A DNA stretch of 64,000 bases, from assembly GCA_963717435.1 (NCBI GenBank), contig OY970332.1:1056001-1120000 (forward strand), given 5' to 3'. Below the pieces are notes generated by a model. That model ran no database searches. It saw only the letters and a program-made list of their open reading frames with translations, and had not been told where the DNA came from. Shown in pieces: positions 8,382 through 63,587 of this stretch; within the stretch, counting starts at the first letter, position 1, and the number at the start of each line of letters is the position of its first letter. This DNA is from an uncultured bacterium. GTDB taxonomy: Bacteria > Babelota > Babeliae > Babelales > Babelaceae. Position numbers and translations under genes: made by a program.

Positions 8382-9950
8382 ATGTTCACAAATAATATTA
8401 ATAACAGCGCAAAGCTGTTTTTTCTGATTCTTTCTTTATTTTCTGCAAAATTAATGGGTATGAGTAGTGGGGAACCAAGACCAGCAAATCAGGACAAATA
8501 TTCTAAAATTAGTTCTGATGTGAAAAGTGTTATTCAAAAACTGGCAGATTCAGGTGTAGATCCCAAAAACCCTGAGGTAAGACTCGTAAGACAACTTAAA
8601 GATTGGACCGCTAATCATAAAAAAACTGTAGGGTTAAACTTAGTTCTACAAACCTTATTAGAGCCGCAAAGCCCATTTTTCAAAAGATTAATGGATGTAA
8701 TTGACGTCAAGTATATGGACTCCACACCAGAAGCGGGTATTTTTTCGATATGGTGGAGCCCTTGCGGGAATTATGCTGTTTCTTCTTCAGAGGACGGGAC
8801 AATTAAAATCTGGGATCTTACCAATAAAAACACTATTAAATCAACTGCAACTTTAGGTGGATATCATACTGAATCTATCAATTCGATATGTTTTAGCTCC
8901 GATGGGAACTTCTTTATTTCATGCGCAGATGATAAAACAATAAAAATATGGGATTTTACAAATAAAAAAGCCCCTAGGTTAATTAAAAGCTTATACGATG
9001 CCCAGCGCTCGCTTGTCTATTCTGTCGCATTGAGCTCAGATAATAAATACTTAATTTCAGGTTCTGGTGAAAAAGTTAAGATATGGGACATTAGAGATAA
9101 GGCAAACCCTAAATTAATTACAGAACTGGGGGACCATGAAGCTAAGGTTCGACTTGTATCTTTTAGCCCCGATGGGAACTACTTCGTTTCTTGTTCTGAT
9201 ACTTGCGATGATGACGATACTGAATTGGGTGATGCGATAATTAAAATATGGGATTTTTCTGATAAAACAATAGAGCCCAAATTGATTAAAACTTTAGTTG
9301 ACCCAGAAACTTCAGTCACATCGTTGTCTTTTACTCCCGATGGGAACTATTTTATTTACGGAGCAGATGATTTCAATATAGAAATATGTGATTTTAGAGA
9401 CAAATCAAATCCAAATCTAGTTCAAACGCTTCCCCCTCATAAATTTGCTGTTCGATCAGTGGCAATGGCTCGTAATGGCAAGTTTTTTATTTCCGGCTCA
9501 GATGGAAAAAGTGGGACTTGCGAAATTAAAATATGGCACTTAAATTCTAAGCAAATTATAGCGCCTATGTTAATTAAAAGTTTAAGTGGCTATCATCTTG
9601 AGACTCTTAGTTCAATATCTCTTAGCCCCGACGGTAAATATCTGCTTTCAGTTTCAAATGCCCCAGAATATAAAGCGGTAATAAAGTTATGGGATCTCAG
9701 ATTTTTGGAATTATATGACGAAATTAAAAAGCTTGTGGATACGCCTGATACAATCAAGATGCGCAAATTATTATTGTTGAATTCGATTTTGGAATTTAGA
9801 GACAATCAGAAAAACGCCAAACACGAATTATATAATATTAATCCGGCTCCATTTGTAATTAGTCACGAGGGATTAAAACCGCTGTTTATTTTATTGCCTG
9901 ATTATTTAAAACAAGCTTTGATTGAGAAAAACTACGTTGAGATAGTTTAA
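8382..9950 (+). CDS. Secreted WD40-repeat protein
   Basis: Repeated IKIWD / FSPDGNYF motifs; N-terminal signal peptide. Confidence 0.9.
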   Translation: MFTNNINNSAKLFFLILSLFSAKLMGMSSGEPRPANQDKYSKISSDVKSVIQKLADSGVDPKNPEVRLVRQLKDWTANHKKTVGLNLVLQTLLEPQSPFFKRLMDVIDVKYMDSTPEAGIFSIWWSPCGNYAVSSSEDGTIKIWDLTNKNTIKSTATLGGYHTESINSICFSSDGNFFISCADDKTIKIWDFTNKKAPRLIKSLYDAQRSLVYSVALSSDNKYLISGSGEKVKIWDIRDKANPKLITELGDHEAKVRLVSFSPDGNYFVSCSDTCDDDDTELGDAIIKIWDFSDKTIEPKLIKTLVDPETSVTSLSFTPDGNYFIYGADDFNIEICDFRDKSNPNLVQTLPPHKFAVRSVAMARNGKFFISGSDGKSGTCEIKIWHLNSKQIIAPMLIKSLSGYHLETLSSISLSPDGKYLLSVSNAPEYKAVIKLWDLRFLELYDEIKKLVDTPDTIKMRKLLLLNSILEFRDNQKNAKHELYNINPAPFVISHEGLKPLFILLPDYLKQALIEKNYVEIV

Positions 9951-10023
9951 AAAGCAAAGTAGTTTTATACCCCGCTACGCCGGGCACAGCCGATTGATGT
10001 ATAAGCCCACAAAGCGAAATCAA

Positions 10024-10084
10024 AACCGCTCGTCCCGAGTGTTTTTCGTAGCGAAGCGAAGAAAAATGTATCGAGGGATGGGCG
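10024..10084 (+). repeat. Structured palindromic repeat, left flank of GIY-YIG gene
   Basis: aaccgctcgtcccgagtg-tttttcgtagcgaagcgaagaaaaa-tgtatcgagggatgg. Confidence 0.9.
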
Positions 10085-10107
10085 TTAAAGAAAGATATAT
10101 TAAAGTT

Positions 10108-10392
10108 ATGGAATATTTTTTTGTTTATATTCTTAAATGTGCTGATGGTTCATATTATGTGGGCCATACGGATAATATTGAAAAAAGAATTATAGAACAC
10201 AAAAGTGGTACTCATAAGGGATTTACATCTAGACGTCTGCCGGTAAAATTAGTTTTTCAACAAGAATTTGAATCTAGGGATGCAGCATTCGTTGCAGAAA
10301 GAAAAATAAAGGAATGGTCACGCAAGAAAAAAGAGGCGCTAATAAAAAGAGATTTTGATTTATTGTCTGAGTTTTCAAAAAAGAAATTTTAA
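10108..10392 (+). CDS. GIY-YIG nuclease, small stand-alone UPF0213/YhbQ-like
   Basis: FVYILKCADGSYYVGHT, R..EH, FT..R.P, AE..IK..SR..K..LI motifs; the extension from 9994 is translated repeat, so ATG 10108 is the likely start. Confidence 0.9.
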   Translation: MEYFFVYILKCADGSYYVGHTDNIEKRIIEHKSGTHKGFTSRRLPVKLVFQQEFESRDAAFVAERKIKEWSRKKKEALIKRDFDLLSEFSKKKF

Positions 10393-10408
10393 TCTTTTTC
10401 AATCTGCC

Positions 10409-10469
10409 CGCCATCCCTCGATACATTCTACTTCGCCAAGGCTTCGTAGAACACTCGGGACGAGCGGTT
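10409..10469 (-). repeat. Structured palindromic repeat, right flank (inverted)
   Basis: Reverse complement: aaccgctcgtcccgagtg-ttctacgaagccttggcgaagtagaa-tgtatcgagggatgg. Confidence 0.9.
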
Positions 10470-10498
10470 GTTTAGCTATACAATTTACGTAAAACTAC

Positions 10499-10538
10499 CA
10501 AGTAAAAACGGGACTTTTTAGGGTCCCGTTTTTACTTG
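10499..10538. terminator. Bidirectional intrinsic terminator
   Basis: caagtaaaaacgggac...gtcccgtttttacttg long inverted repeat. Confidence 0.75.
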
Positions 10539-10547
10539 CACTAAACT

Positions 10548-11054
10548 TTATTGCTCTTCTTCTTCATCCATTCTATCTTCTTCATCAACCGTCATAATAT
10601 TCATGATCGAAACCGCCATAAATACCGGACGAAGTTCATCAAGAGCCGAAAAATCAAACTCTTCTTCTGACATCATTTCTTCTAATTTTGCTTCAAACTG
10701 TTCATATTTTGCAAAGCGCTCGTCAGCCAATTTTAACCAGTTTCCGGTTTTGATTATATCTTTAAGAGTTTGTTCAAGTTCTTTTCCAAATTTAACAAAT
10801 TCAGCAAGACCGCCCTCTTTTTCCATGAATATAGAAAGTCCCGCCCTTGCAGCTGCAAGTCTGCCAATTAAACCGTTTTTAACAGTTTTATCAACATTTT
10901 CCAAAAGCAATACTCCCTTAATTAAAACCTCTGTCTCTTCGTAGATGGTCATGATCCCGTAGTTTTGCTCAAAGAGATACGCCCATTCAACATCTATCTG
11001 ATTGTTTTTAAAATCATTTAAAAAATCAAAAAGCTCTTGTTTCAATTCTGACAT
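10548..11054 (-). CDS. Acidic hypothetical protein
   Basis: 168-aa ORF with AAGGA RBS and downstream terminator. Confidence 0.7.
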   Translation of the reverse strand: MSELKQELFDFLNDFKNNQIDVEWAYLFEQNYGIMTIYEETEVLIKGVLLLENVDKTVKNGLIGRLAAARAGLSIFMEKEGGLAEFVKFGKELEQTLKDIIKTGNWLKLADERFAKYEQFEAKLEEMMSEEEFDFSALDELRPVFMAVSIMNIMTVDEEDRMDEEEEQ

Positions 11055-11217: not shown

Positions 11218-12412
11218 ATGGGGACCATTGGGACGCATAAAATATTTACTATAATATTATTAGTTATTTTTAATATCTTTTGGGGCCCAATTTACGGGCT
11301 ATATTTTTCAGAACTTGAAGAAGAATTTTCTATGTTGCAAAATATAGAACCTGGGACAGAAGAAGACGAAATAGAACTGGAAGAAATTAATGGCAATTCG
11401 GAAGAAAACAAAAAAGCATTATGTGAAGAGTTTTTCCCAATAGAAAAGCTTCCCACAGAGTTAATAATATTTATAGCAAGTTTATTACTTAAATCAGAAA
11501 ATGCTGAAAATTCTTGCACGAATATTTATGCCGATATTGCTAGTTTTTTAATAACATGCAAAAAATTTTATGCACTAAAAAATAATATAAATAAGTTGGT
11601 TATAGAAAATCTCGACGGGCATAATTACAAATTATTAAGCGCAAGATTAGAGCTAATAAAAAAAGACAAATCCCGAAGCGGATTTGGTACACGTGGCCGT
11701 TAAATTTGAAAACAAAAATTGGTTAACTTTGTGGGTTTTAAAAAATATAATCGGGCCCAGAGATTTGCAAGAGAAAGATGTTTTTGAAAAAAGCTTAAAA
11801 ATCTTAAATATAAAAGACACGTTGGATAGAACACCTCTCCATACGGCAGCATATAGCAATAAACCCAGAATCATTTATATGCTGGCAAAATTGGGGGCAG
11901 ACTTGGAATTCCAAGAATTTAGGGGTAACACGCCATTACATTTTACTGTATTTAAAGGCAGCGCAAACTCTGCGCACATGCTTTTAAAACTGGGCGCAAA
12001 CGTTGATGCAAGAAATAAAAGTAATCGCACGCCGCTGCATAGAGCTTGTTTTAAAGACTGTTTTGAAATGGTAAATCTTTTTTTAAAATTTAAAGCGGAT
12101 CCAAACGCACGGGATAATATAAATCGAACGCCATTACATGAAACCGCTACTAAGAACAGCTGGAAGTCTGTGCCGTTATTATTAAAATTTGGCGCCAACC
12201 CCAATTTGCCAGATTCTCAGGGTAATACGGCTTTGCATGAAGCTGCGCGTTTTGGAAGCACAGAAGTCGTCGGGCTGTTAGTGCGTGCAGGGGCAAATAA
12301 ATCTATTTTAAACTTAGCAATGGAAACTCCCGCCCAGGTTGCCATAAATAACGGCTATACTGATCTTGCTAGAATTATTGAGCCCAATACCAGTGATTGC
12401 AAAATTGTGTGA
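11218..12412 (+). CDS. Signal peptide + F-box-like + ankyrin repeats + CaaX protein, split by a +1 frameshift at the A run ~11659-11665
   Basis: ORFs 11218-11703 and 11684-12412 join if one A is removed (ATA AAA AAG ACA AAT CCC GAA GCG GAT TTG); IEKLPTELIIFIASLL..LITCKKF; five TPLH/TALH repeats; ends CKIV. Confidence 0.75.
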
Positions 12413-23578: not shown

Positions 23579-23660
23579 ACCATCCCTCGATACATTTTTT
23601 CTTCGAAAAAACACTCGGGATGAGCGGGCATCTTGGCGAAGACGGGACGAGCGGGGTATA
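23579..23660 (-). repeat. Structured palindromic repeat plus partial second copy
   Basis: ccatccctcgataca-ttttttcttcgaaaaaa-cactcgggatgagcggg, then tcttggcgaagacgggacgagcggggtata. Confidence 0.9.
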
Positions 23661-31958: not shown

Positions 31959-33323
31959 ATGAACAGTCCAAAAAAAATCGGGATCTGGGGCTCCGGAGTG
32001 GTCGGCAGATCTGCAATAAAATATTTTTCCGCCCGATCTGATTATCAAATTGTCGCACTTGCAGACAAAAAAGAGCCCGATGCCCAATTTCTAGAATTTC
32101 TGGGAAAATATACTACCCCCAAATTCTATCCTGAAGAAAATATTCAAGAGTTTTTAGAAATCTGCGACGGAATTCTCCCGTCACCGGGCATAGACTTAAG
32201 AAAATATAGTAAATATAAGCATAAATTTATAACTGAAGCCGATATATTTGCGCAAAACTGGGATAAAACTAAACCGGTAATTGCCATAACAGGCACAGTG
32301 GGTAAAACTTCTGTTGTTACTTTACTTTCTAAAGTATTAGAACAAAATAATTTACGTGTCGCTACTGGCGGCAATATCGGCACAGGCATGCTTGATCTTT
32401 TAGAGAATCAAGAAAATTATGACATTGCTGTGCTTGAACTTTCAAGCTTTCAATTAGAATACTGTAAAATATTTGCCCCCGATCTTGCGATAATTACCAA
32501 TATTTTCCCGAACCATTTGGACAGGCACGGAGACATGCAGAATTATCTGCAAGCAAAATTTAATATTTTTTTGAACCAAAACAATAATCAAAAACTGTTG
32601 GTCCCTGAAGAGCTTCGCCCTCAAATAGAAAATTTAAGAAAAACTGACACTTGCCCGGCACCCTTCGATACATTTTTCTCACTTTGTTCGAAAAACACTC
32701 AGGGCGAGCGCGTGCCTGGTGACGGGTGTATCGAACCATGCGGGCCGAGAAGCTCAAAATTCTCATACCCCATTCCCGATATATCATATCCAGTAAACTG
32801 GGTAATAATATTTAAAGCCTGCGAGATTATGGGCATAGAAATAAAAAACTTAGATATAAATAACTTAGAAATACCAGATCATAGAGTTGAATTTGTTCGC
32901 GAATTTAACGGCATAGAGTTTTATGACGATTCAAAATCAACAGTGTGTCAGGCGACGCTTGCAGCCGTAGAAAAACTTAATAACAAATCAGAAACAAAAC
33001 CCATAATTTTATTTTTGGGGGGTATCTCAAAAGGCGTCGACAGATCTGGGCTAATTAAAGATCTAAAAAACAAAGTTTCAGAAATTATCTGCTTTGGATC
33101 TGAAGCTGAAAATTTAAATAAATTTTGCATAGAGAATTCGATACCAAGTAGTTTTCATAAAACTTTAGAAGAAGCTTTTTCTGCGTGCATCTCTTCAAAT
33201 ATGTGCTCAACAAAAAATAGCGCCCGCGTTTTATTTTCCCCATCCGGCGCAAGCTTTGATCTTTTTAAAGATTATAAAGATCGGGGAAATAAATTTAAAA
33301 ATCTGGTAAATAGTTTAAAATAA
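31959..33323 (+). CDS. murD: UDP-N-acetylmuramoyl-L-alanine--D-glutamate ligase
   Basis: SPGI, ITGTVGKTS, GGNIG, LELSSFQL, NHLDRH, DDSKST, SPSGASFDLF. Confidence 0.95.
   Translation: MNSPKKIGIWGSGVVGRSAIKYFSARSDYQIVALADKKEPDAQFLEFLGKYTTPKFYPEENIQEFLEICDGILPSPGIDLRKYSKYKHKFITEADIFAQNWDKTKPVIAITGTVGKTSVVTLLSKVLEQNNLRVATGGNIGTGMLDLLENQENYDIAVLELSSFQLEYCKIFAPDLAIITNIFPNHLDRHGDMQNYLQAKFNIFLNQNNNQKLLVPEELRPQIENLRKTDTCPAPFDTFFSLCSKNTQGERVPGDGCIEPCGPRSSKFSYPIPDISYPVNWVIIFKACEIMGIEIKNLDINNLEIPDHRVEFVREFNGIEFYDDSKSTVCQATLAAVEKLNNKSETKPIILFLGGISKGVDRSGLIKDLKNKVSEIICFGSEAENLNKFCIENSIPSSFHKTLEEAFSACISSNMCSTKNSARVLFSPSGASFDLFKDYKDRGNKFKNLVNSLK
32652..32744 (+). repeat. Nested palindromic repeat inserted in frame in murD
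   Basis: Near-identical to the reverse complement of 63483-63572. Confidence 0.92.
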
Positions 33324-40945: not shown

Positions 40946-42772
40946 TTAACTCGCTATTCTCAAATTTGTCCATGGAGACATAGCGCTACTTACCCTTGAC
41001 GAAGGAGACACGCCACCGCCACCACCAGGTGTCATCATTGAACCTACTGGCAAGCCAAACAATTGATTTGCAATCAATGGCGTTGTTACGCCATTTGCAT
41101 ATGAAATATTCTGGGTAAAAATATTATTACTATTTAGTGTATAAATTCCATACGAGTTGGCATCCACCGTTGCTGCATTTTGGCTAACCATGCAACCTGA
41201 AATCACATTGCTTGATGAACTGGCATCTAAGTATATGCCGTAAGCCTGCTGCAGCGACGTGGCTGCCGTATTACTTTTTATTACGCAATTCGATATATTA
41301 TTTCCCGTGCTATTAGCTGCACCGGAACTGAGGTATATACCAATAAAAACTTGACCTTGTGCAGTATTTGATTCGATTCTGCAGGACGTAATATCGTTTG
41401 CTTGTGCCTGCGCTATTTGGATCCCATAGAAGGTTGTTGTATGCAGATTACCTGATATCAAACAATCACTAATGAAATTACTATAGCTGAGTGTACCTAC
41501 CACAACAAGGCCGGGGCTAAGACGTTGATTATTTGTAATTAAACATCTTAAGACTGAATTTAATGCTGAGGCTGAAATATAAAAAGCATTTAAAAAACAT
41601 GTATTTCCGCTAATCACGCAATCTTCAAATACATTACCTGCTGTCAGGCCCGACGAAGCAGGGGAAGCTGAACTATTCCCAATTAAAGATACAAATGCTC
41701 CCGATGATGAAGAAGTAGCAATGTTTCCCTGAGCCACACAGTTCCTGACAAAATTATTAGAGCTGTATTGAAGGTTAAAACAAGTAAAATCGACAGGAAC
41801 AGTATTGCCAAGAAATTGACAATTTTCAATAAAATTTTGGCTACAGGTATTAGCAGACAGAGAATTCAGCGCTATCCCGTAAGATACGCCTGCGTTGATG
41901 AGATTATTTCTAATTGAGACATCTGAGATAATATTATTAGAGCAAAGTGATGATACAGTTGTAAGCTGTATGGCATACAGATTACCAGTTGAGCCACCTC
42001 CCGTGTTTTCACTTATATCAATATTTTTTAAAGAACAAGAATTTGAGTCTGTTAAGCCTATAAATGAAAAGCTACTGCTGTTTGTAGTATTATTATTAAA
42101 CGTGCAACCTGAAACAAGAACTGATTGGCAGTTTGAAAGATTTATGCCAAAATCTGAAGAGGCATTGGAAAAACAGCCTATAAAGTTGCAGTTATTGATT
42201 TGCGAAGCCGTTATATTTGACCCACCCGTTCCGGTAAAAGTACCAGAAAAATCTATACCCCGTGTCTGGCAATTTGCAAAATCAAGATTTTGCAAAGTAA
42301 TCACACTACAACCTGCCTGAGCTAATACGCCAGCACGGGTAAAGCCAAGTAGCGTCCCGTTTTGTATCGTTACGTTTGTAACACCGGGCGCAATTACGAT
42401 TCCGTTACAACTTGCTGTCGCCGTTGTCTGGATCACTGAATATTCGTTCAGGTCCAATGTAACATAACTTGCCTGAATCAAGATCGTTCCGTTAGGATCG
42501 CCGCTTGATGTAATATTTGTTCCAAGTTCGTAGTTACCGGAATGCGTAATTAAAAAATCTGTCGTATGCGTTGTGTTAAAAAAAGATATTAAAAAAAATA
42601 AGCTTAAAATTAATTTATTAAATTCTTTTGCCCGCATCCCTCGATACACCCTTCGGGCACTCCCAGGCTTCGTGCAAGACTTCGCCGGGCGCGGGGGGAG
42701 GAGCGGCTTTTGGGAATTATTTTTTTGAGTTTTAACCACCTTGATAAACTTATTAATTGTTTTGCAAATCAT
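40946..42772 (-). CDS. Secreted right-handed beta-helix protein with repeat-derived N-terminal insert
   Basis: ITHSGNY.L, VTLDLN, C.I..N repeats; AAGGA RBS before 42772. Confidence 0.8.
   Translation of the reverse strand: MICKTINKFIKVVKTQKNNSQKPLLPPRPAKSCTKPGSARRVYRGMRAKEFNKLILSLFFLISFFNTTHTTDFLITHSGNYELGTNITSSGDPNGTILIQASYVTLDLNEYSVIQTTATASCNGIVIAPGVTNVTIQNGTLLGFTRAGVLAQAGCSVITLQNLDFANCQTRGIDFSGTFTGTGGSNITASQINNCNFIGCFSNASSDFGINLSNCQSVLVSGCTFNNNTTNSSSFSFIGLTDSNSCSLKNIDISENTGGGSTGNLYAIQLTTVSSLCSNNIISDVSIRNNLINAGVSYGIALNSLSANTCSQNFIENCQFLGNTVPVDFTCFNLQYSSNNFVRNCVAQGNIATSSSSGAFVSLIGNSSASPASSGLTAGNVFEDCVISGNTCFLNAFYISASALNSVLRCLITNNQRLSPGLVVVGTLSYSNFISDCLISGNLHTTTFYGIQIAQAQANDITSCRIESNTAQGQVFIGIYLSSGAANSTGNNISNCVIKSNTAATSLQQAYGIYLDASSSSNVISGCMVSQNAATVDANSYGIYTLNSNNIFTQNISYANGVTTPLIANQLFGLPVGSMMTPGGGGGVSPSSRVSSAMSPWTNLRIAS
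42631..42706 (-). repeat. Structured palindromic repeat variant in the 5' end of the CDS
   Basis: catccctcgatacac-ccttcggg-cactc-[ccaggcttcgtgcaagacttcgccggg..]-gggaggagcgg. Confidence 0.85.
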
Positions 42773-57841: not shown

Positions 57842-57905
57842 ACCATCCCTCGATACATTTTTCTTAGCTATCGCTACGAAAAACACTCGGGACGAGCGGG
57901 TATAG
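57842..57905 (-). repeat. Structured palindromic repeat between convergent genes
   Basis: ccatccctcgataca-tttttcttagctatcgctacgaaaaa-cactcgggacgagcgggtata. Confidence 0.92.
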
Positions 57906-63482: not shown

Positions 63483-63587
63483 ATGGTTCGATACACCCGT
63501 CACCTAATCCCGCGCTCGCCCTGAGTGTTTTTCGAACATAGTGAGAAAAATGTATCGAAGGGTGCCGGGCACTCACCACGAGCGGGT
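63483..63587 (-). repeat. Nested (repeat-within-repeat) palindromic element
   Basis: Outer TGGT/ACCA-stem copy on the minus strand encloses an inner CCCT/AGGG-stem copy on the plus strand. Confidence 0.92.

Follow-up and report, generated by a model that had tools for sequence, protein, structure and literature searches.

The locus described here is very probably a cassette of the Ssn type, in which the gene of a 94-residue GIY-YIG nuclease is bracketed by inverted copies of a presumed recognition element that is dispersed in about 110 copies. The ssn-like gene (10108-10392, + strand; 94 codons and a stop codon; Pfam PF01541) sits between a left unit of 58 nt at 10024-10081 (+) and an inverted right unit at 10411-10469 (-), both with their 5' box turned outward, in the 64-kb window, by which we mean the whole stretch of DNA that was analysed. 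The initial annotation had proposed this arrangement of a GIY-YIG gene between inverted structured repeats, with identical arms, differing inner hairpins and close spacing, and it was right in each of these respects: 26 nt separate the left unit from the ATG and 18 nt the stop codon from the right unit, both units have the same 5' arm of 18 nt and the same 3' arm of 15 nt (shuffled sequence gave a mean of 0.00 matches for the 18-nt arm and 0.05 for the 15-nt arm), and the inner hairpins differ. In the left unit, the 5' box and first 4-nt box occupy 10024-10041, the inner hairpin 10042-10066, and the 3' arm with the complementary box 10067-10081. When folded as single-stranded DNA (ssDNA), the left unit reaches -10.3 kcal/mol on the + strand vs. 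-5.3 kcal/mol for its complement, and the right one -10.4 kcal/mol on the unit strand vs. -6.7 kcal/mol. The whole cassette is flanked by the convergent ORFs 8382-9950 (+) and 10548-11054 (-).

A Pfam profile search places the GIY-YIG domain (PF01541) over residues 4-75 of the 94-residue protein with an E-value of 9.9e-17, and domain and structure searches found no second domain in it. Residues Y7, Y17, R27, H31 and E64 are invariant in an alignment of 18 homologues, and the numbers of R27 and H31 agree with those of catalytic residues of I-TevI. The nearest solved structures by sequence are the UPF0213 entries 1zg2 and 1ywl (PDB, E of about 1e-14), no structure of an Ssn protein having been found for comparison; the B. 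subtilis yazA product (from a plasmid-collection record) is 40% identical to the protein, and the repeat-flanked relatives are 50-67% identical. There are five GIY-YIG matches in the genome, and units flank just the gene at 10108-10392, which is the one intact copy of this nuclease clade vs. about 110 units belonging to three box classes or more.

The repeat unit consists, in order, of CGCTCG, four variable bases, GAGTG, a variable hairpin (mostly 16-32 nt), nGTATCGA, and the four-base complement of the variable bases. It makes a two-tier hairpin, with an unpaired and oriented 5' box, (C)CGCTCG, followed by a covarying 4-bp helix, an internal loop, and a variable inner hairpin, the internal loop being conserved as GAGTG on one side and TGTATCGA on the opposite one. 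The 5' box occurs as CGCTCG, CGTTCG or CGCTCA, and the general motif class can be written as CGYTCR, a 4-nt box, GAG, a loop or hairpin, TCGA, and the complementary box. Genome-wide, the two 4-nt boxes are compatible in 99 of 110 units, which fall into the classes TCCC:GGGA (54), CCCT:AGGG (25), TGGT:ACCA (10), CCCC:GGGG (4) and a few others, and every one of the four helix pairs is formed in 103-109 of the 110, with changes on both sides. Since the 4-bp helix covaries, it is the folded single strand that is under selection; in 98 of 103 units, the ssDNA fold is stabler on the unit strand (mean -7.85 kcal/mol) than on the complement (mean -6.38 kcal/mol). Folded DNA or RNA had been named as the target in the initial annotation, and the covariation upholds the folded single strand, while RNA is disfavoured: 19 units have the same orientation as their co-directional neighbouring genes and 20 the opposite one, a lack of bias that argues against a strand-specific RNA role, and SsnA, the characterised enzyme treated below, is reported to be inactive on RNA (PMC11893778).

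The genome is a single contig of 1,198,203 bp with 34.6% G+C, in which a strict pattern counts 92 units (reversed control 0) and a slightly wider regular expression counts 110, so that the genome-wide dispersal claimed from the window holds. Five further window loci had been listed in that claim, and four of them are units, two of the same class as the cassette and two of a variant class. The solo units at 23580-23629 (-; CGCTCA box variant) and at 57843-57901 (-) belong to the TCCC/GGGA class, and a partial additional 5' arm lies after the former, at about 23639-23656. The variant class is represented by a CCCT/AGGG unit at 32661-32710 (-), which is followed by the 3' half of a TGGT/ACCA host unit in a truncated nested composite inside the murD ORF (32654-32740, -), and by a complete CCCT/AGGG unit at 63513-63562 (+), which lies within the inner loop of a TGGT/ACCA unit in the nested composite 63484-63584 (-), a kind of unit-inside-unit arrangement that recurs elsewhere in the genome. 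The fifth locus, 42631-42700 (-), is degenerate, with one mismatch in its 3' arm and a decayed 5' arm that gives no match within three mismatches. The segment 9966-9987, which had been taken as a remnant of a unit, has to be withdrawn, as its core belongs to a different low-copy GC-rich repeat with four genome hits at one mismatch or fewer. The murD unit was tried as a filled/empty test for a solo unit and gave an ambiguous answer, the repeat-encoded segment replacing a variable stretch of about 45 residues with no clean insertion.

As to where the units lie, 79 of 110 are outside mechanically called long ORFs, which make up 83% of the genome. Another count puts 29 of 110 within mechanical ORFs of 120 aa or longer, and in 26 of the 29 cases the unit is more than 60 nt away from either ORF end. 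No replichore orientation bias was seen (33/32 and 26/19). Twelve gene-less pairs of units stand head to head with spacers of 14-62 nt, several of them sharing an AT-rich core. Among outward-facing pairs up to 4 kb apart in the genome, no other gene is tightly bracketed by an inverted pair of the same class; the genes found between such pairs, namely those of ankyrin proteins, a pilin-like protein, and pieces of gyrA, include no transposase and have mismatched box classes, and they were set aside. The enzyme had also been proposed to be of a non-HUH kind, and a search for the HUH/Y1 transposase family (PF01797) indeed gave no match in the genome at E up to 0.01, the control search detecting the family in 6 of 14 reference genomes.

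The tie between the nuclease gene and the repeat is real, and it is the comparison across genomes that carries this conclusion. Among 151 genomes of the order, 39 (counting G000) have close homologues (E of 1e-25 or less), often in multiple copies, some of them with internal stops and several at contig ends. Of 29 loci of the order that we examined, 26 have flanks of 150 nt or more to the left and right of the gene and were counted. Within 170 nt of the gene, 21 of the 26 have a motif turned outward (9 on both sides and 12 on one) and 5 have none, inward-facing motifs occur in 3 of the 26, and the background in the far parts of the order loci is 0.18 motifs per kb. A scan of one genome per prokaryotic species yielded 586 relatives, and the best 80 of these 586 (50-64% identity) belong to Babeliales, Nitrospirota, Chloroflexota, Sphingomonadales, Burkholderiales, Ignavibacteria, and others. 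Within this best-80 set, 63 of the 75 loci with complete flanks have an outward motif, 31 of them on both sides, and 12 have no motif; many in the set hold a short-form repeat whose inner hairpin is reduced to a small loop. The same bracket was found with a motif-free test, in which the upstream flank was locally aligned to the reverse complement of the downstream flank (score of at least 20): 17 of 26 order loci were positive vs. 1 of 25 in the far-flank control taken 300 nt further out, and 50 of 75 cross-phylum loci (again from the best 80 of 586) vs. 4 of 71. Among doubly flanked loci, the same 4-nt box is found on both sides in 8 of 9 in the order and in 20 of 31 in the cross-phylum set, and it differs between loci. 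Homologues from other genera, families, and phyla are bracketed in the same way, which supports the claim that the nuclease and the repeat belong together. Two relatives, G005 (8 copies) and G027 (10 copies), hold the long-form repeat and have no nuclease homologue detected at E of 1e-5 or less; therefore, the repeats can persist without the gene.

Pairs of a nuclease and a hairpin repeat were first described in 2025 as the Ssn/SRM system (Chenal et al., Nat Commun 2025, PMC11893778). The SsnA protein of N. meningitidis is a single-domain GIY-YIG protein of 94 aa (CDD cd10448) which binds a hairpin repeat of about 28 nt, the NTS, only as ssDNA, cutting a few nt upstream of it, and which is inactive on the reverse strand, on double-stranded DNA and on RNA; its mutants Y6A, Y17A, and E64A keep binding and lose cleavage (PMC11893778). 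SRM motifs are present on both flanks of 42% of the homologues, and in Neisseria, SsnA lowers transformation by NTS-bearing DNA (PMC11893778). In view of this layout and biochemistry, the statement of the initial annotation that no characterised system of such a kind was known does not stand, while its analogy with REP/RAYT systems was apt and had already been drawn by the authors, who liken NTS-ssnA-NTS to an insertion sequence and to RAYT/REP (PMC11893778). The idea that the GIY-YIG nuclease is the cognate enzyme of the repeat is right by analogy, with its biochemical precedent in Ssn.

The two systems share a single-domain GIY-YIG protein of 94 aa, a gene placed between inverted hairpin repeats on its 5' and 3' sides with an oriented and conserved 5' box, a repeat dispersed in roughly a hundred mostly intergenic copies, and an enrichment in host-associated bacteria with small genomes. 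Residues Y6, Y17, and E64 of SsnA would correspond to Y7, Y17, and E64 here, an equivalence by position only. The differences are in the repeat and in the host: a single stem of 7-8 bp closed by a loop of 3 nt makes up the NTS, whereas the stem here is split into a covarying 4-bp helix, an internal loop that is conserved, and an inner hairpin that is long and variable; the published 5' box is CGTCAT, whereas the 5' box here is CGCTCG, CGTTCG, or CGCTCA; and the host lineage is new with respect to the hosts of the Ssn survey, the only Dependentiae genome in Supplementary Data 4, Babela massiliensis, being scored there with 0 NTS, 0 SRM, and no homologue (PMC11893778). The published SRM pattern gives a single hit in the genome, overlapping no unit, vs. 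0-2 in five first-order Markov shuffles, and in the 80 cross-phylum loci (the best 80 of 586) a single hit inside the gene match and none in the flanks. The plasmid collection gave 13 records in a search for an NTS-flanked homologue, and the three that were inspected (Sphingomonas paeninsulae, S. parapaucimobilis, and Legionella lytica) have no SRM-pattern hit.

An indirect link to ssnA comes from Sphingomonadales, where relatives 50-57% identical to our protein occur in species scored as ssnA- and cd10448-positive in Supplementary Data 4 (PMC11893778), a correspondence that is not one-to-one because those genomes hold several small GIY-YIG genes. Three Sphingomonadales species with repeat-flanked relatives are ssnA-positive there with an SRM enrichment of only 1.0-1.3-fold, and this low enrichment fits a second motif class missed by the SRM pattern (PMC11893778). 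The 94-residue protein is probably a member of cd10448, judging from its architecture, size, catalytic residues, and these indirect links. In the literature searched, we found described neither the CGYTCR motif class nor a GIY-YIG bacterial transposase, the Ssn paper being the only relevant one. What is new with respect to that paper is the host lineage, a repeat class outside the SRM pattern, the boundaries given by paralogues, and a filled/empty site.

By analogy with SsnA, the protein would bind the folded unit once the DNA becomes single-stranded, as may happen at replication forks, during repair, or in incoming DNA, and the bound enzyme would then cut a few nt 5' of the box, duplex DNA and RNA presumably not being substrates. 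Given that the flanking units face outwards, cuts are predicted at both ends of the cassette, one per strand, and the cassette boundaries obtained from paralogues in related genomes coincide with these predicted cut positions. Five such pairs of paralogues within single genomes have 373-489 bp of similarity at 83-91% identity, confined to unit-gene-unit, and in the two cleanest pairs the similarity extends past the 5' box by just 0-2 nt at either end. A comparison of filled and empty orthologous sites, as had been proposed, was possible in the case of G022, where about 480 bp, made of the gene and two units, stand in an intergenic spacer that measures about 20 bp in two aligned congeners; judged by flank spacing, the block is absent in 5 of 5 congeners searched, although the G022 cassette is without its upstream unit and the filled/empty comparison is, to that extent, imperfect. 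In all, the unit-gene-unit block behaves as a discrete element of gain and loss. Nine public sequencing runs cover small shares (at most 0.14) of the stretch, and two short contigs from such runs span the left junction with 0 differences.

Several readings of these data have to be weighed against each other, and one of them, that the units are just REP-like elements or regulatory or terminator RNA structures and that the gene landed between two of them by chance, is extremely improbable. The enrichment of units between convergent genes (31 of 81 intergenic units vs. 159 of 1010 intervals) and the two relatives with units and without the gene would suit it, but the bracket was found again at 21 of 26 homologue loci of the order and at 63 of 75 from other phyla (the latter from the best 80 of 586) over the low motif background already given, the units are not biased in orientation with respect to transcription and are present within ORFs as well, no Y1 transposase was found in the genome, and Rfam gave no match at gathering score in the window and none overlapping the units at E up to 10. 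A further reading is also improbable, if less so: the repeats would have spread by another route, and the nuclease gene, as a selfish passenger, would break DNA at pairs of them and be copied in by homologous recombination with the units as homology arms. Enzymes of the GIY-YIG kind are, of course, classic homing endonucleases, the twelve gene-less head-to-head pairs are possible landing sites, and the flanks of a cassette are usually of one 4-nt box class. Nevertheless, the spacer of about 20 bp into which the G022 block was inserted has no unit in the two aligned congeners, so the units arrived together with the gene, and the 94-residue protein is without the DNA-binding domain of homing enzymes, matching the NCBIfam model TIGR01453 at only 21 bits vs. 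a cut-off of 56.05 and over residues 5-41 only; besides, the characterised Ssn enzymes leave duplex DNA uncut (PMC11893778).

The reading as an Ssn-type cassette can be extended, without competing with it, to a minimal transposon. We hold it possible, though on balance doubtful, that we are dealing with a very small IS-like element whose only transposase is the GIY-YIG nuclease, and just as tentatively that the solo and paired units are its MITE-like non-autonomous derivatives, mobilised in trans via single-stranded intermediates. The discrete paralogue boundaries at the predicted cut sites and the one filled vs. empty site among congeners point this way, and so do the multiple copies in the order with their occasional stops and contig-end positions, the presence of the clade in many phyla at 50-64% identity (best 80 of 586), the recurrent nesting of unit in unit, the 29 of 110 units within ORFs (26 of them well inside), and the twelve gene-less head-to-head pairs, several with a common AT-rich core; the same idea appears in the Ssn authors' Discussion (PMC11893778). 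On the other hand, no target-site duplication was seen at the compared paralogue ends, the cuts are predicted on opposite strands, unlike those of IS200/IS605, and there is no replichore bias, unlike that of ssDNA transposons that depend on the lagging strand. We know of no strand-transfer activity in a single-site GIY-YIG monomer. The paralogues are only 83-91% identical, and therefore no recent jump was caught, and no excision joints across the cassette were found in contigs of four public runs (at 85% likeness), although this does not show that excision is absent. A spread of the gene-less repeats by the enzyme is a hypothesis we put forward from the discrete boundaries and the one filled/empty comparison. 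The most far-reaching form of the idea, that the CGYTCR class marks a distinct cross-phylum Ssn-like subclade amounting to the smallest autonomous bacterial transposon family known, of about 370-490 bp, with an enzyme that also drives gene-less units, we consider unlikely; in such a family, a GIY-YIG ssDNA nuclease of about 94 aa would be the only protein, one strand would be cut at each inverted end, and units without a gene would be sent by the enzyme into coding sequences, into the spacers between genes, and into the hairpin loops of other units.

Set beside other known systems, the Ssn-type cassette resembles in layout REP/BIME sequences with their RAYT enzymes, having likewise a small enzyme gene between inverted copies of a dispersed extragenic palindrome, which, by analogy, would also be recognised as a folded single strand. 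RAYT is an HUH Y1 enzyme, however, and both fold and chemistry are unrelated, GIY-YIG being a hydrolytic nuclease with no covalent tyrosine intermediate. With IS200/IS605, the cassette would share the recognition of subterminal hairpins in ssDNA and cleavage a short distance away, again by analogy, and it shares the lack of target-site duplications; in IS200/IS605, one and the same strand is cut at both ends, and the ends are not inverted repeats, whereas the ends here are inverted, from which follows the prediction of cuts on opposite strands, and, unlike in IS200/IS605, the units have no replichore bias. Rickettsia palindromic elements are short palindromic repeats of a reduced intracellular genome, some of them placed within protein-coding ORFs, and our units resemble them by description only, with 29 of 110 in ORFs and one in murD. 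With homing endonucleases of the I-TevI type, the enzyme has in common the catalytic domain and a selfish behaviour, but it is without their DNA-binding domain and lies in neither an intron nor a phage context. Rickettsia is, moreover, among the SRM-rich genera of the Ssn survey (PMC11893778).

In summary, Ssn enzymes are the only known site-specific nucleases cutting ssDNA exclusively, and each pair of enzyme and hairpin is therefore a potential new specificity for ssDNA tools. The repeat class described here is modular, in that its box is fixed, its 4-bp helix programmable, and its inner hairpin dispensable, a design that suggests which part sets the specificity. The locus adds to the Ssn family a lineage that was scored negative on its single genome by the published survey, and there is evidence that the published SRM pattern under-counts the family, since several genomes scored there as ssnA-positive and not SRM-enriched carry relatives of this nuclease, most of them flanked by a motif of the CGYTCR class (PMC11893778). 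More generally, the boundary data, together with the filled and empty sites, turn the possibility that a bare GIY-YIG nuclease may work as a transposase into a directly testable question.

In the source genome (G000, whose single contig is C1) some repeat units are nested: at positions 63484-63584 of the window the inner loop of one unit encloses, in the opposite orientation, a whole unit that belongs to a different box class. This nested composite is repeated several times in the genome, with further copies at C1 ~44208, ~810348 and ~815323. Head-to-head pairs of units were found as well, at C1 193743-193903, 238625-238779, 375698-375857, 438286-438452, 452907-453056 and 830581-830747, in which one partner always carries the same inner hairpin type, ATCACC...GGTGAT, and in which the AT-rich spacer of 49-62 nt is alike between pairs. 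These pairs look like a MITE-like family of composites without coding capacity. A truncated nested composite also lies within the murD ORF (window 31959-33323), where it is read through in frame, and the alignment with seven orthologues showed that the repeat-encoded stretch substitutes for a variable segment of ~45 residues and is not extra sequence.

The cassette, that is, the GIY-YIG nuclease gene between its two inverted units, is located between the stop of the upstream gene and a strong perfect hairpin at window positions 10492-10527, which has A and T runs on its flanks, separates the cassette from the convergent downstream ORF, and looks like a bidirectional terminator. Besides the GIY-YIG gene of the window, the genome contains small GIY-YIG genes that form a second subfamily, ~38% identical to the window gene, with copies in the loci L013 (1404-1659; C1 ~200170), L011 (1419-1716; C1 ~413462) and L010 (1245-1713; C1 1022780-1023250), one of them with an internal TAG. 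A tRNA gene lies immediately upstream of the copies in L013 and L010, and a perfect hairpin of a type unlike the window units lies 5' of the genes in L013 and L011, directly upstream of the gene in L011 and, in L013, with its first base directly after the tRNA 3' end. The L013 hairpin opens with a GTCAT-like box, which recalls the Neisseria NTS, and similar hairpins without a gene adjoin tRNA genes at C1:838845 and 988687.

Other genes are also found between units. The gyrase A N-terminal and C-terminal domains lie between two of them (L152:646-2909 = C1:999445-1001711) on two separate mechanical ORFs, a split that may be an artefact of the ATG-only calling. Two tandem ankyrin-repeat ORFs of 394 aa each, whose Pfam profiles are nearly the same, occupy the interval between two units that differ in box class (L150:382-2765 = C1:229581-231967) and, together with the WD40 ORF (window 8382-9950) and the ankyrin ORF (window 11684-12412), fit a host-associated lifestyle of this bacterium.
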